Shown here piece by piece: positions 40,888-44,071 of a stretch of 64,000 nt of DNA. A program made the translations under genes and the position numbers. This DNA comes from Gemmatimonadota bacterium. Its GTDB lineage: Bacteria; Gemmatimonadota; Gemmatimonadetes; Gemmatimonadales; GWC2-71-9. Position 1 is the first letter of the stretch, and each line of letters opens with the position of its first letter. The DNA lies in assembly GCA_036679645.1 (NCBI GenBank), contig JAZDCY010000033.1, positions 13,700 to 77,699 of the forward strand, read 5' to 3'. The notes under the pieces are model-generated. The model had not been told where the DNA came from and ran no database searches. It saw nothing but the letters and a program-made list of their open reading frames with translations.

Positions 40888-40928
40888 AAATGTTTCGTGA
40901 CGTGCCGAAAAGCAAGGGAATTATGTAC

Positions 40929-40957
40929 TTGACGTAAACCGTTGGTAGTGTTATATT
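40929..40957 (+). promoter_or_regulatory. Sigma70 promoter in the left end (transposase)
   Basis: TTGACG-17-TATATT. Confidence 0.7.
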
Positions 40958-40986
40958 TCGTCAGGTAAAAAGATAGGAACCTGACG

Positions 40987-41982
40987 ATGACCCGCATAGC
41001 CGGAGACAAGGACCCCATAACTACCGCCCTCCCAAAGGCTTGCGTTGACGAGCGGATGGCGATGGACTTCCTAGAGACCCTGATCTGGGGCTACGAGCCC
41101 GCCTGCCCCCGCTGTGGCGATCTGGACGTGTACCCGATGAAGGAACGCAAGACCGGGGAACGTCAGGCCAACGGGCGTTGGCGCTGTCGGGGCTGCAAGC
41201 AGCAGTACACGGTGCGGACGGGCACCATCATGGAGGACTCTCGCATCCCGCTCAAGTATTGGTGTTTTGCGTTCTGGCGGGCGTGCAGCTCGAAGAAGGG
41301 CGTGAGCGCCCTCCAGATCAAACGCGAGACTGGCTTGAGCTACAAGAGCGCCTTGTTCCTGATGCACCGGATTCGCTACGCGATGAGTGGCGGCCCCGAC
41401 CGTCCGTTGCGGGGGACCGTGGAGGTAGATGAGACCTACGTGGGCGGGAAGCCCCGTCGCCACACGCGGAAGCAGAACCGCCGCCCCGGCGAGAACCCAA
41501 ACGTCCAGGGCCGCGCCCCGGACTTCCAGGATCGCAAGACGCCCGTAGTCGCCTTGGTCGAGCGAGGCGGGCCCGCGAAGGCGATCTCGCCAGGGGACGA
41601 ACACGTCACCGGCAAGAACCTCAAGCGGATCATGAGAGAAACCGTGGACCCGTCAGCGACGATCATGACGGACGAGTCCGGCGTCTATCGCGGGATCGGT
41701 CGCCACTTCGAGGGCGGACATTACACCGTCCGGCACTCGATCGGCGAGTACGTCCGGGGCGACGTGACCACCAACACGGTCGAGGGGTTCTTCTCACTCT
41801 TGAAGCGGGGTGTTGTTGGGACGTTTCACCACCTCAGTCGGAAGCACCTGGGGCGGTACGTCAGCGAGTTCGAGTTTAGGTACAACCATCGCAAGGTGAG
41901 TGACGGGGTGCGGACGGTGGCGGCGATCCGGGCGGGGATGAAGAAGCGGCTCACTTACGCCGACCATCTAGCGAGTGTATGA
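40987..41982 (+). CDS. IS1595 (ISXO2-like) DDE transposase
   Basis: Zn ribbon CPRC/CRGC; VEVDETYVGG, IMTDE, TNTVEG, EF.FRYN. Confidence 0.95.
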   Translation: MTRIAGDKDPITTALPKACVDERMAMDFLETLIWGYEPACPRCGDLDVYPMKERKTGERQANGRWRCRGCKQQYTVRTGTIMEDSRIPLKYWCFAFWRACSSKKGVSALQIKRETGLSYKSALFLMHRIRYAMSGGPDRPLRGTVEVDETYVGGKPRRHTRKQNRRPGENPNVQGRAPDFQDRKTPVVALVERGGPAKAISPGDEHVTGKNLKRIMRETVDPSATIMTDESGVYRGIGRHFEGGHYTVRHSIGEYVRGDVTTNTVEGFFSLLKRGVVGTFHHLSRKHLGRYVSEFEFRYNHRKVSDGVRTVAAIRAGMKKRLTYADHLASV

Positions 41983-42014
41983 ACAGTGGAGAACGAGACC
42001 TAGCGGAGGGACCT

Positions 42015-42260
42015 ATGGCGGAGAAGCCGAACGGGGAGAGCATCCGGTTGCGCGAGCAGATCATCGAGGATGAGGTCTCCGGTTTGACGATCCAGATCGA
42101 GCGTACCCCGAATGGCGAGGGGCGGGTCCGGCTGTTCGGCAACATCCCGTTCCGTCATCGCGATTTCGCCTTTGATCGCGACGGGAGATTGGTGGGAACG
42201 GGAACTGGCACATGTTCAACATGTGCCAGCCCCACGTCATGGTTGAAGGTGGTGGACTAG
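42015..42260 (+). CDS. Hypothetical passenger protein
   Basis: GGAGGGG RBS; an in-frame ATG at 41979 overlaps the transposase stop; C-terminal CSTC. Confidence 0.6.
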   Translation: MAEKPNGESIRLREQIIEDEVSGLTIQIERTPNGEGRVRLFGNIPFRHRDFAFDRDGRLVGTGTGTCSTCASPTSWLKVVD

Positions 42261-42556
42261 GGCGTCACGTCGTTGCACGCTGGCAACCGACCGTGACCGT
42301 TGTAGTACTCTTGTAGAAGCTCTCGCTCGCGCCCGAGTGGGGCGGCGTTCACTTCCGTCTTGAAGAATTGGGCTCGCTGTGTGCACGGGCCCTCGTTCCC
42401 CGCGTAGTGACTACGGAGGCGATCACGAATACTGATCGTCGAACTGCCGTAGTAGATGATGTCGGGCATCGTATCGAGCTGATAGACGCCCGGTTGTGCC
42501 GGTGCGCCTTCTATGCGCTCCGGAGTGAAACTCTGGTAATCGCCTTGAATCGGCAT
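42257..42556 (-). CDS. Small standalone GIY-YIG nuclease-like protein
   Basis: PGVY, IIYYG, IRDRL..H, RERELL, P.CN; GGGAGG RBS. Confidence 0.8.
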   Translation of the reverse strand: MPIQGDYQSFTPERIEGAPAQPGVYQLDTMPDIIYYGSSTISIRDRLRSHYAGNEGPCTQRAQFFKTEVNAAPLGRERELLQEYYNGHGRLPACNDVTP

Positions 42557-42598
42557 AAGCCGGATCCTCCCTTGGTGACATTTTTCACATTGTCAGAA

Positions 42599-42639
42599 GG
42601 GGGACTCGCCCATATATTAGTCAGCTTGGCGAGTCCCCC
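42599..42639 (-). terminator. Strong hairpin directly after the tRNA CCA
   Basis: gggggactcgcc / ggcgagtccccc; only a weak U tract. Confidence 0.55.
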
Positions 42640-42744
42640 TGGTGCGCCTGACGGGACTCGAACCCGCACGGGGTGTATCAGCCTACACAGCGGCACCCCA
42701 CTGGCTCCCAAGGCCAGCGTGTCTACCGGTTCCACCACAGACGC
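42640..42744 (-). tRNA. Atypical tRNA: Leu-type body, TGG (Pro) anticodon, very long variable arm
   Basis: GCGTCTG/CAGGCGC, A73, encoded CCA; D arm GTGGAACCGGTAGACAC; CTGGC-CTTGGGA-GCCAG; T arm GCGGG-TTCGAGT-CCCGT. Confidence 0.85.
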
Positions 42745-42795
42745 GAGCGGGGATGGCCGGAGGGCCCGAAGGCCCCCGGCCGCTAGGTCAGGGGG

Positions 42796-42807
42796 TTATG
42801 GCGGCAT
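42796..42807 (-). CDS. Candidate minigene Met-Pro-Pro-stop
   Basis: GAGGAGG-6 nt-ATG CCG CCA TAA. Confidence 0.55.
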   Translation of the reverse strand: MPP

Positions 42808-42894
42808 GGCAGACCTCCTCATGTATCGGCGGCGGTTTCGGAGCGATCTTGCCAAAGAAGATCCGAGACCGCCGCCTCGTTATTGGGGTTAGAA

Positions 42895-43323
42895 CTAGAA
42901 CGGAACGTCCTTCGGTTGATCGTCCTCGGCGCTCCACTCTGCTAGCCCATACCAGCCCCGTTTCGGGCTGCTAAAAACATCATCACGTCGCCTTAACGCA
43001 GACACAAGCGAACCCCTGATCTTGTCTGCGGCCTCGTCCGCTCGATACCCACGTCGTTGCATCTCCGCGATCAACCCTTGAATACGAACAATTTTCCCAA
43101 GTTCCTTGAGAACGGTCTGCGCTTGGCTGACGAGTTCACTTGACCGCGCCCGCCGCCGTTTCGGCGTCCCGTTAGTGCTCGGCATATCGTCGCCAAAAAG
43201 CTCTATGTGTTGCTCAAGCCCGGCGATCAGAGTTAGTATAGATTTGCGCCTTCGATCAATCTGGGTCAGTTCCCGTTTGAGGCGCTTAAGAGTCACGCGG
43301 TAGCTTTTTGTGTGATCCGTCAT
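42895..43323 (-). CDS. Coiled-coil plus winged-helix (HARE-HTH-like) protein
   Basis: N-terminal coiled coil; C-terminal ..F....RGWYGL.EW; TTGATC-16-TATCTT just upstream suggests a leaderless start. Confidence 0.7.
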   Translation of the reverse strand: MTDHTKSYRVTLKRLKRELTQIDRRRKSILTLIAGLEQHIELFGDDMPSTNGTPKRRRARSSELVSQAQTVLKELGKIVRIQGLIAEMQRRGYRADEAADKIRGSLVSALRRRDDVFSSPKRGWYGLAEWSAEDDQPKDVPF

Positions 43324-43345
43324 GCTCAGCAAGATAGCGAGTAAT

Positions 43346-43534
43346 ATGTCAGGATCAAGCGCCACAAACGGACCCGGAGAAGCCGCTGCCAATAAGGACG
43401 AGCGCCCAGGTCCTGACCCTGAGCGGCTCAAAGTCGAGGGGAACTGGAAGGACGCCCTCAGACGGGCTCTCCGAAAGAAGAAGCCAGCGGAGGGATGGCC
43501 GGGAAAAACCGCGAAAAACAAAGGGGCCCCTTAG
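43346..43534 (+). CDS. Small basic hypothetical protein
   Basis: PGPDPERLKVEGNWKDALRRALRKKKPAEGWP; followed by a ggggcccc/ggggcccc hairpin. Confidence 0.6.
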   Translation: MSGSSATNGPGEAAANKDERPGPDPERLKVEGNWKDALRRALRKKKPAEGWPGKTAKNKGAP

Positions 43535-43647
43535 TCGGGGGCCCCAAGAACTACATCAGCTTGCCAAGCCTTAGGAAGGTAGGACCTTCCCCATCTGATA
43601 GCAAGACCATTCGGTGTATCTTCTATTGACAAGCACGGCAGCAGGTG

Positions 43648-43720
43648 GGTGACGAACCGGACTTGAACCGGTTACTTCAGCTTGGCAAGCCGATGTGTTA
43701 CCAGTTACACTACCGCCACC
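43648..43720 (-). tRNA. Atypical tRNA: His-type acceptor (G-1:C73), GCC (Gly) anticodon
   Basis: G-GTGGCGG/TCGTCAC-C; D arm GTGT-AACTGGTA-ACAC; TCGGC-TTGCCAA-GCTGA; T arm ACCGG-TTCAAGT-CCGGT; CCA not encoded. Confidence 0.8.
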
Positions 43721-44010
43721 ACGACGGTTGCCGTACCTCTTCTGGATGCCAACCAAGCGGCGACCGCCTCACCTGTTACTGCCACAAACAATCTACTCGG
43801 GTGGAGCCCTTACTGCAACAACTGCCTGGACCGGCCCCCAGCCTAATCCTACCGAGGGGTGGCCGGGCCCTCGAAATAGAGAGGGGCCGGGCGTTTATCC
43901 CGGCCCCCAGCCCGATTAGTTGGCTAACTGCCCTGCCAGTCGATTATGCTGGCTGACCGACTTCGAGTAAAGCCGATCTAGTTCCTCCGGAGCCAGCGGA
44001 CCGGCCCGCA
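43721..44010 (-). ncRNA. Candidate structured non-coding RNA or tRNA leader
   Basis: No convincing ORF; several GC-rich hairpins; lies downstream of an inward promoter. Confidence 0.4.
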
Positions 44011-44015
44011 CTCCC

Positions 44016-44043
44016 AAGATAACGCCTCACCGCATTTACTCAA
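44016..44043 (-). promoter_or_regulatory. Inward-facing sigma70-like promoter in the right end
   Basis: TTGAGT-16-TATCTT, mirroring the left-end promoter. Confidence 0.5.
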
Positions 44044-44071
44044 GTACACAATTCCCAAAAGCAAGAGCAGG

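Follow-up and report, generated by a model that had tools for sequence, protein, structure and literature searches.

A proline-codon minigene and a leucine-type tRNA with a UGG anticodon: a possible RNA-only cassette of IS1595 elements

Introduction

What does a three-codon reading frame do directly upstream of a tRNA gene? In a Gemmatimonadota genome, a Met-Pro-Pro minigene led by a strong Shine-Dalgarno sequence (SD) stands just before a tRNA with the proline anticodon UGG. The original prediction for this locus held that the proline anticodon is not accidental, and saw in the pair either a sensor of proline decoding or EF-P status controlling the tRNA and a nuclease, or a toxin neutralised by the tRNA. 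Proline-codon toxins themselves were reported in June 2026, from CRISPR loci of P. aeruginosa only according to the available text of the report, which leaves their mechanism open (bioRxiv 10.64898/2026.06.02.729485). Here we ask whether the minigene is conserved, to what kind of tRNA it is coupled and which element carries the two.

Materials and methods

All coordinates are positions in the window, that is, the whole 64,000-nt stretch analysed (GCA_036679645.1, contig JAZDCY010000033.1, 13,700 to 77,699). A pattern search for a Leu-type tRNA body with a UGG loop gave 79 loci in species-representative genomes and at least 7 in viral contigs; together with locus G093 and the window locus this makes 88 listed loci, 86 of them distinct, from many phyla. 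Because the patterns needed GGTA in the D loop, they miss family members that differ there. A metagenome sample of Leu bodies with pyrimidine-starting non-Leu anticodons comprised at least 120 loci, including 29 UGG and 30 UUA. Duplicates (L199 and L216) were left out, as were loci with too little flank (2 in the upstream-window count, those below 100 nt in the metagenome tally and those below 700 nt in the winged-helix count).

We recognised the Pro-Pro and Arg-Arg classes of minigene by eye at first and counted them by rule afterwards. For the Pro-Pro class, the rule asked for two Pro codons in a row inside an SD-led open reading frame (ORF) no longer than 6 codons and lying within 200 nt upstream of the tRNA. 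Promoters and terminators were called by simple scans for consensus matches and are to be read as predicted sites throughout.

Results

A Met-Pro-Pro minigene between two hairpins

The minigene and both hairpins that bracket it are present in the window as originally read (Table 1); the distance from the stop codon to the tRNA 5' end (42744), predicted as about 50 nt, is 51 nt. The SD pairs with the anti-SD at -12.7 kcal/mol, and an in-frame upstream ATG without an SD gives the longer frame MRRSAMPP* (42796-42822). The pattern ATG-x(0-2)-Pro-Pro-stop has 47 matches in the whole 4.05-Mb genome, three of them with an SD of -7 kcal/mol or better, and among these three the window minigene has the strongest SD. 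All three sequence features of a CreT-type minigene are found: a strong SD before the AUG (42814-42820), two consecutive Pro codons directly before the stop (ATG CCG CCA TAA) and a GC-rich downstream hairpin, the C(UUCG)G hairpin, whose stability of about -25 kcal/mol does not, in this GC-rich locus, go beyond that of shuffled sequences (p 0.22). By analogy with CreT, we predict that it serves as a 3' protective hairpin. Across the Pro-Pro loci described below, hairpins beyond shuffles are found upstream of the minigene in 13/19 and downstream in 12/19.

A pairing of AGGTC with downstream GACCT had also been proposed. It forms with a probability of about 0.7 when the leader is folded alone and of 0.0 once the tRNA is included; the homolog alignments hold no conserved equivalent, and we reject this 5-bp helix as a conserved element.

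Table 1. Features of the minigene locus and of the element that carries it (window positions)
Feature	Position	Strand	Remarks
IS1595-family element	40916-44056		3.1 kb; terminal inverted repeats 40916-40932 and 44040-44056
IS1595 transposase	40987-41982	plus	DDE_Tnp_IS1595 and zinc ribbon; convergent with the predicted RNA cassette
GIY-YIG-like ORF	42257-42556	minus	99 aa; just below the Pfam cut-off
Sigma-70-type promoter-like site	42590-42618	plus	TTGTCA-17-TATATT; aimed back through tRNA and minigene
13-bp hairpin	42598-42640	minus	directly 3' of the tRNA; antisense -10 box in its loop
tRNA, leucine-type body	42640-42744	minus	UGG (Pro) anticodon
C(UUCG)G hairpin	42755-42781	minus	GC-rich; after the minigene
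Minigene	42796-42807	minus	ATG CCG CCA TAA (Met-Pro-Pro-stop)
Shine-Dalgarno sequence	42814-42820	minus	GAGGAGG; 6-nt spacer TCTGCC before ATG
Long hairpin	42828-42876		upstream of the SD; followed on the plus strand by a T-rich run, 42877-42884
Winged-helix gene	42895-43323	minus	142 aa; coiled coil and winged helix (HARE-HTH-like); directly upstream of the minigene
Weak promoter-like site	43331-43358	minus	TTGATC-16-TATCTT; ends 7 nt before the winged-helix ATG
Second odd tRNA	43646-43720	minus	GCC anticodon; G-1/His-like acceptor

The tRNA has a leucine-type body

The tRNA does carry the UGG anticodon, but its body is Leu-type and not Pro-type. It has G1:C72, A73, A15/U48, a Leu-type D loop resembling that of the host tRNA-Leu genes, a 33-nt variable arm and an encoded CCA; ARAGORN missed it, and it scores 53 bits against the Rfam tRNA model. 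Identity as tRNA-Leu lies in A73, A15:U48, a Leu-type D loop, a long variable arm and the absence of C1:G72, and the window tRNA has all of these. Over 115 listed UGG tRNAs, A73 is found in 111 and U48 in all 115, with a full 7-bp acceptor stem in 101 and C1:G72 in 7; the D loop formed part of the search pattern and is therefore not independent evidence for Leu identity. LeuRS does not read the anticodon, according to the available text of PMC11028032. Because the Leu identity rules fit and LeuRS ignores the anticodon, we predict that the Leu-body UGG tRNAs are Pro-to-Leu missense tRNAs. The host also encodes a normal tRNA-Pro(UGG) and EF-P.

A DNA search of 401 genomes of the phylum yielded one true homolog, G093, which lacks a Pro-Pro minigene; the other top matches, 10 of the 28 fetched, are ordinary tRNA-Leu genes. 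Recoding of the element's own transposase was considered and rejected: in a comparison of 53 transposases from UGG elements with 12 others, no column had Pro in UGG elements and Leu elsewhere. The literature searched, which lacks most subscription papers, did not describe a Leu-body UGG tRNA occurring naturally in bacteria.

Related Leu-body tRNAs were met in the metagenome sample. One family has the ochre-reading anticodon UUA (30 of the at least 120 loci; L239, L248, L253, L264, L274, L295 and others); a transposase match lies in 8/23 of its loci longer than 1 kb, and among the matches listed the family has no Pro-Pro minigene. A separate family has CGC, CUC or UUC anticodons (L236, L245, L250, L262, L280, L286, L308 and others), with a conserved structured leader, a downstream sense TTGAC site and no IS1595 transposase match. 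By eye, the leader hairpins of L162, L155, L200, L213 and L229 hold TCCAA, complementary to the UUGGA anticodon loop.

Pro-Pro minigenes are conserved and precede UGG tRNAs

By the rule given above, 15/84 listed loci have a Pro-Pro minigene upstream of the tRNA (14/83 without the window locus), compared with 4/4,380 other windows of the same loci and with a mean of 0.10 and a maximum of 1 per set in 100 Markov shuffles. All 15 pass an SD threshold of -4, and two more listed loci have MPPP with a longer tail; the other side of the count is that 69/84 listed UGG loci have no such minigene. Downstream of the UGG tRNA, none was found in the 84 listed loci. The original prediction had staked itself on conservation of the SD and minigene, and on this count it holds: the minigene is a real and conserved element.

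What is conserved is proline before a stop. Over 20 Pro-Pro loci the peptides are MPP, MPPP, MKPP, MRKPP, MKPPP and three with tails, and the stop comes directly after the second or third Pro in 18/20. ATG, frame and stop are kept across homologs while third positions, stop type and spacers vary. The 54 Pro codons comprise 23 CCG, 14 CCT, 9 CCC and 8 CCA, and the stops are TAG (9), TAA (5) and TGA (4); the use of all four Pro codons and all three stops argues for selection on proline before the stop and not on CCR codons. The idea that both minigene codons match the UGG anticodon thus does not carry over to the homologs, in which CCU or CCC makes up 23 of the 54 Pro codons and the same tRNA is also preceded by AGA/AGG, ACA-ACA and CAA-CAA minigenes.

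The association with UGG was seen again in the metagenome sample. Among the matches listed, Pro-Pro minigenes stand before 3/29 UGG, 0/30 UUA and 0/52 other anticodons (3/29 against 0/82, Fisher p 0.016, with kin that are not independent). In earlier sets, from which GTT-anticodon rows were left out, they precede 0/57 listed viral tRNAs with non-Leu anticodons and 0/30 ordinary Leu tRNAs. Among the Leu-body tRNAs listed, Pro-Pro minigenes are thus seen only before UGG, and on this point the original prediction is supported. When viral contigs were scanned for MPPx-stop upstream of Leu-body tRNAs of any kind, the one match, before an ordinary Leu(UAG) tRNA, was due to chance; YCT and VGG anticodons each had 2 viral matches, too few for Arg covariation. 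On a tRNA tree the Pro-Pro label needs 8 changes (shuffled mean 18) and a single origin is not rejected (p-AU 0.082), the tree, of 87 columns and 163 rows, being poorly resolved and unable to settle single against repeated origin. The UGG association may therefore be inherited and not repeatedly selected.

The minigene slot is modular

Other doubled codons occupy the same slot. AGA/AGG doublet minigenes with an SD precede the UGG tRNA in 3/84 listed loci compared with 0/4,380 background windows (9 by eye, longer ORFs included), and are also found before amber and ochre versions of the tRNA (L281, L326). ACA-ACA minigenes (L171, L261, L267) and a CAA-CAA minigene (L238) have a strong SD and lie 31-38 nt before the Leu(UGG) tRNA. 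Since one slot holds AGA/AGG as well as ACA-ACA, there is no strict anticodon match, and AGA/AGG, ACA-ACA and Pro-Pro would seem to be interchangeable slow-codon minigenes. ACA is the cut site of E. coli MazF, and the ACA-ACA and CAA-CAA minigenes might respond to MazF-like nucleases. At another IS1595 locus, L034, an SD-led Met-Pro-stop minigene lies downstream of the Leu(UGG) tRNA, 172 nt from the tRNA start.

Upstream of the slot, a winged-helix gene ends within 400 nt in 15/18 Pro-Pro loci and in 4/68 UGG loci without the minigene, counted with a profile seeded with 10 Pro-Pro loci, so that the matches outside the seed are L165, L178, L194, L202 and L207 only. Pfam HARE-HTH passes its cut-off in 2/13 of these proteins, and the nearest Atlas cluster is 14% HARE-HTH. 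The minigene runs into or directly adjoins the winged-helix stop codon in many alphaproteobacterial loci, which suggests translational coupling.

A search of about 1,500 genomes with the winged-helix profile gave 34 further loci, found independently of the tRNA. None of the 34 has a strict Pro-Pro-stop minigene; two carry a doubled-codon minigene, MTTT* in L377 and MPPPLV* in L380, and in both a hairpin, an RNA with a tmRNA-like acceptor and a convergent promoter-like site come next. The small RNA of L377 (L377:2067-2142) has G3.U70 and matches the Rfam tmRNA model at 26.7 bits (E 2e-7), below gathering; that of L380 (minus strand, after the ATG near 1374) has no Rfam match and is not Leu-type. 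The two RNAs are possibly Ala-charged suppressors or SmpB decoys.

A convergent antisense promoter is predicted behind the tRNA

Promoter-like sites scoring at least 8 on the antisense strand, within 72 nt of the tRNA 3' end, are found in 41/85 listed UGG loci, compared with 12/85 on the sense strand, 6/84 at 300 nt further and 3/30 for ordinary Leu tRNAs; listed viral tRNAs with other anticodons show no strand asymmetry (15 against 14 of 57). Among the matches listed, metagenome UGG loci have the antisense site in 17/27 and a sense site in 2/27, and UUA loci in 6 and 4 of 28. The Pro-Pro loci have it in 15/20.

Terminator-like sites on the antisense strand are placed differently depending on the minigene. 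Within 70 nt of the tRNA they occur in 19/92 loci without a Pro-Pro minigene and in 0/19 with one; the 6 antisense terminators of Pro-Pro loci, the long hairpin of the window included, all lie beyond the ATG, and 13/19 Pro-Pro loci have no antisense terminator at all. We predict from this arrangement a convergent antisense RNA over tRNA and minigene, for which the long hairpin and its T-rich run would form a terminator-like end beyond the minigene. Within 150 nt upstream of the Pro-Pro minigenes, a promoter scoring at least 8 was found in 0/20; the weak site before the winged-helix gene is a candidate sense promoter of the cassette.

The host element belongs to the IS1595 family

A DDE transposase, inverted repeats and an 8-bp target duplication (40908-40915 and 44057-44064) mark the surrounding 3.1 kb as an IS1595 element with passenger genes; the genome has one copy of it. 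Along the minus strand, the GCC tRNA is followed by the winged-helix gene, the minigene, the UGG tRNA and the GIY-YIG-like ORF. The latter is the nuclease that the minigene was thought to control; by tblastn it is present in 1/88 listed loci, that of the window, and we drop this part of the claim. Within the flanks fetched, 49/88 listed loci have an IS1595 transposase, and only 8/17 Pro-Pro loci do; similar bounded IS1595 elements were found at L202, L163, L169 and L157. Four features had no place in the original prediction: the leucine-type body of the tRNA, the winged-helix gene ahead of the minigene, the surrounding IS1595 element and the promoter-like site on the antisense strand.

The element holds further small features. 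The second tRNA combines a GCC (Gly) anticodon with an extra 5' G and a His-like end and is possibly a Gly-to-His missense tRNA; about 80 nt downstream of it a stretch of 17 nt (43553-43569) is 94% complementary to its anticodon arm, and it has no relatives among the fetched loci. Upstream of it lies a cluster of GC-rich hairpins (43820-43950, minus), with no Rfam match at gathering, together with a promoter-like site at 43943-43971. A small basic ORF without a Pfam family (43337-43534, plus) is divergent from the winged-helix gene; tblastn finds it in 22/88 listed loci including that of the window, mostly beside IS1595 transposases. PADLOC gave 0 hits on 9 proteins.

A minimal element of 2.1 kb with inverted repeats (L202:2041-4161) contains a degenerate CGC tRNA, a winged-helix gene, MKPPP*, a UGG tRNA and the transposase. 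Further irregular tRNAs adjoin the UGG tRNA in L202, L163, L198, L223 and L226, the one in L198 being a Leu-body UGA tRNA.

Discussion

An RNA-only cassette as the preferred reading

The reading that we favour, to which we give a little less than an even chance, is that IS1595 elements carry an RNA-only addiction or abortive cassette, in which a CreT-like minigene and a missense tRNA are silenced by an antisense RNA. One transcript from the winged-helix gene would span the minigene and the UGG tRNA, and an RNase P cut at the tRNA 5' end would leave an SD-MPP-stop RNA ending in the GC hairpin and protected by hairpins. Repeated initiation and slow handling of Pro-Pro and stop would then keep both ribosomes and Pro-tRNA occupied; termination after proline is slow, which adds to the stall. 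The UGG tRNA, charged with Leu, would put Leu at Pro codons as a second poison, and the drain on Pro-tRNA could let it compete better there. This synergy, which is purely inferential, would explain why Pro-Pro minigenes are found only with UGG. The antisense RNA would silence both poisons together, and its decay would release both once the element is lost or host transcription stops; the winged-helix protein may autorepress the sense promoter.

We favour this reading because the architecture matches that of P. aeruginosa CreT and the slot also holds the AGA/AGG design of CreT as well as ACA-ACA; because antisense promoter-like sites are enriched, antisense terminators lie beyond the ATG and hairpins bracket the minigene; and because the Leu-type tRNA features are kept and an IS1595 transposase lies near 49/88 listed loci. 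Against it stand the 69/84 listed UGG loci without a Pro-Pro minigene, the 13/19 Pro-Pro loci without an antisense terminator, the single origin that is not rejected and the transposase seen in only 8/17 Pro-Pro loci. No promoter scoring at least 8 was found within 150 nt upstream of Pro-Pro minigenes, while CreT toxicity needed high expression according to the available text (bioRxiv 10.64898/2026.06.02.729485). The toxin limb of the original prediction has gained a precise precedent in the proline-codon toxin CreT; neutralisation by the tRNA survives as a live rival.

That rival, which we judge unlikely but worth keeping in view, has the tRNA as antidote: the Leu-charged UGG tRNA would put Leu at the Pro codons of a CreT-like toxin minigene, remove the Pro-Pro stall and spare Pro-tRNA; the antisense RNA would act as the trigger by taking the antidote away. 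It would fit the restriction of Pro-Pro to UGG (15/84 and 3/29 against 0/30 ochre, 0/52 other and 0/57 viral, among the matches listed), as well as the 34 further winged-helix loci, where strict Pro-Pro-stop is absent and both doubled-codon minigenes are followed by a tRNA-like RNA. It also agrees with the finding, in the available text, that CreT2 needs two consecutive Pro codons, Ser and Leu replacements being among the mutants tested (bioRxiv 10.64898/2026.06.02.729485). However, the tRNA has no Pro-Pro minigene before it in 69/84 listed loci, the AGA/AGG, ACA-ACA and CAA-CAA minigenes before the same tRNA are unreadable by UGG, and MPPPLV* of L380 precedes an RNA that is not Leu-type. The polarity is also wrong for addiction, as a mature tRNA would outlast the toxin RNA, and recoding would be partial in a host with its own tRNA-Pro(UGG).

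The sensor of the original prediction can be cast as a ribosome-sensing leader. The untranslated minigene would pair with the tRNA 5' half and so prevent the tRNA from folding or from being cut by RNase P; when shortage of EF-P or Pro-tRNA stalls a ribosome on Pro-Pro, this would free the tRNA, which would relieve stalling by inserting Leu. The host does encode EF-P, and in the window the tRNA D arm can pair over 15 bp with the spacer and the codons (-24.4 kcal/mol against a null of -14.6, p 0.008), a duplex that also appears in a separate fold. In equilibrium folding, which handles tRNAs poorly, the acceptor stem of the window tRNA forms with a probability of 1.00 when the tRNA is folded alone; adding the leader brings this down to 0.00, and a ribosome footprint brings it back to 0.18. 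L169, the second Gemmatimonadota locus, gives a similar picture (p 0.014; 0.00 to 0.67). Across the 20 loci, however, no conserved switch appears: the footprint raises the acceptor stem by at least 0.15 in 6, changes little in 12 and lowers folding in 2, and complementarity exceeds the synonymous-codon null in only 3. A 10-sequence alignment has no shared structure (covariation term 0), and no terminator/antiterminator pair was found. A general sensor of proline decoding is thus not supported, and we consider the leader model unlikely.

Still less probable, in our view, is a parking site, at which a harmless minigene would hold a ribosome after the winged-helix gene and shield the precursor from decay or Rho termination, the tRNA being the only active cargo. 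Overlap or abutment with the winged-helix stop in many alphaproteobacterial loci, the several slow-codon types in the slot and the lack of an own promoter scoring at least 8 within 150 nt would all suit it, but it leaves unexplained why Pro-Pro occurs only with UGG, why the stop comes directly after Pro in 18/20 and why antisense terminators shift beyond the minigene when it is present. Finally, a chance SD and short ORF in a GC-rich spacer, which could draw on the 47 ATG-x-Pro-Pro-stop matches in the genome and on the complementarity of CCN CC to the SD (hairpin selection could thereby mimic Pro codons), is so improbable as to be largely refuted already by the 15/84 listed loci against 4/4,380 background windows, the 3/29 in a separate collection (among the matches listed) and the ATG, frame and stop kept while third positions, stops and spacers vary.

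Significance

These observations extend the CreT design to CRISPR-free mobile elements, where it adjoins a natural, widespread tRNA that we predict to translate Pro codons as Leu. If the pairing is functional, the three-codon ORF makes up a toxin-antitoxin system together with a recoding tRNA and an antisense RNA. Such a system would also bear on how Pro-Pro-stop kills: a Leu-charged UGG tRNA should rescue if killing is by peptide-level stalling, and should worsen matters or not help if it is by Pro-tRNA drain and mistranslation. For annotation, the tRNA of the window was missed by ARAGORN, and anticodon-based annotation would label such genes Pro.

More broadly, IS1595 elements across many phyla may hold an undescribed RNA-only toxin-antitoxin class, a claim we put forward tentatively. 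Such a class would pair a CRISPR-independent proline-codon toxin with a Pro-to-Leu tRNA, as co-toxin or antidote, under antisense control. Its slots would be modular, taking Pro-Pro, AGA/AGG or ACA-ACA minigenes and Leu-body UGG or ochre tRNAs or tmRNA-like mini RNAs. The cassette suggests an origin for CreT toxins, and the class could be a pool from which CRISPR loci recruited them. In the literature, of which most subscription papers were out of reach, we found no report of a CRISPR-independent proline-codon toxin or of its pairing with a Leu-body UGG tRNA.

Comparison with known systems

In type I toxin-antitoxin systems such as hok/sok, a cis-antisense RNA lies over a structured toxin transcript on a mobile element. 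The locus described here likewise lies on a mobile element, and the structured transcript and small convergent antisense RNA predicted for it would complete the likeness; the toxin of hok/sok is a membrane peptide, whereas the poisons predicted here are RNAs (a three-codon ORF and a tRNA).

With the allo-tRNAs and G-1 irregular tRNAs, the window tRNA shares a long variable arm and a non-cognate anticodon (PMC5389517, available text, as for the rest of this comparison). The proposal for those tRNAs was that they act as missense or nonsense suppressors and have links to transposons and toxin-antitoxin loci; they have 8/4 or 9/3 stems and Ser/Ala identity, whereas the window tRNA is canonical, of Leu type, and aligns 7/5 to Rfam tRNA, so that we reject allo-tRNA identity. 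The word 'proline' does not occur in the main text of that paper, and its available text does not mention a minigene leader. The tRNA-ProX of Streptomyces is likewise a natural dual-identity bacterial tRNA, which mistranslates and harms E. coli; according to the available text it has a Pro body, a non-Pro anticodon and a dedicated ProRSx (PMC11415595), of which the window tRNA, without a synthetase, is the mirror image.

Haloarchaeal CreT toxins (AGA-AGA, AUA-AUA) share a strong initiation signal, a doubled slow codon, a stop and a stem-loop, and their AGA/AGG form is also found in the same slot of sister loci L184, L215, L219, L218 and L281. There, in the text available, the tRNA is the host's cognate one, whose overexpression rescues (PMC8501985); here a non-cognate tRNA lies in cis, and control is not by Cascade.

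The closest likeness, by described architecture and not by sequence, is to CreT1 and CreT2 of P. aeruginosa. According to the available text of the preprint (bioRxiv 10.64898/2026.06.02.729485), these consist of an SD, a mini-ORF of at most 15 nt with two Pro codons followed by a stop, and a GC hairpin, all of which are required. Synonymous Pro codons were tolerated, and a 3-nt deletion after the ATG, which by our inference leaves M-P-P-stop, stayed toxic. The toxins are described there as apparently specific to type I-F loci of P. aeruginosa. The minigenes reported here, in Alphaproteobacteria and Gemmatimonadota, share the SD, the consecutive Pro codons directly before the stop and the GC-rich hairpin downstream. 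They differ in being IS1595-borne, without a cas operon, a creA mini-array or an own promoter that we could find, and in having behind them a Leu-body UGG tRNA and, convergent with it, a promoter-like site. No cas operon lies beside the element (cas1 and a CRISPR array are on contig C9, the element on C28); the host repeat (33 nt) and 3 spacers give weak local scores only (12 or less) against the element in a search for creA, and Rfam scans of the element and 16 Pro-Pro loci found no CRISPR RNA family. Membership of CreTA is thus rejected for lack of adjacent cas genes and creA. By analogy on all three sequence features, the minigene would work like CreT, and we take it to be a variant of CreT that forms part of a mobile RNA cassette apparently not described before.
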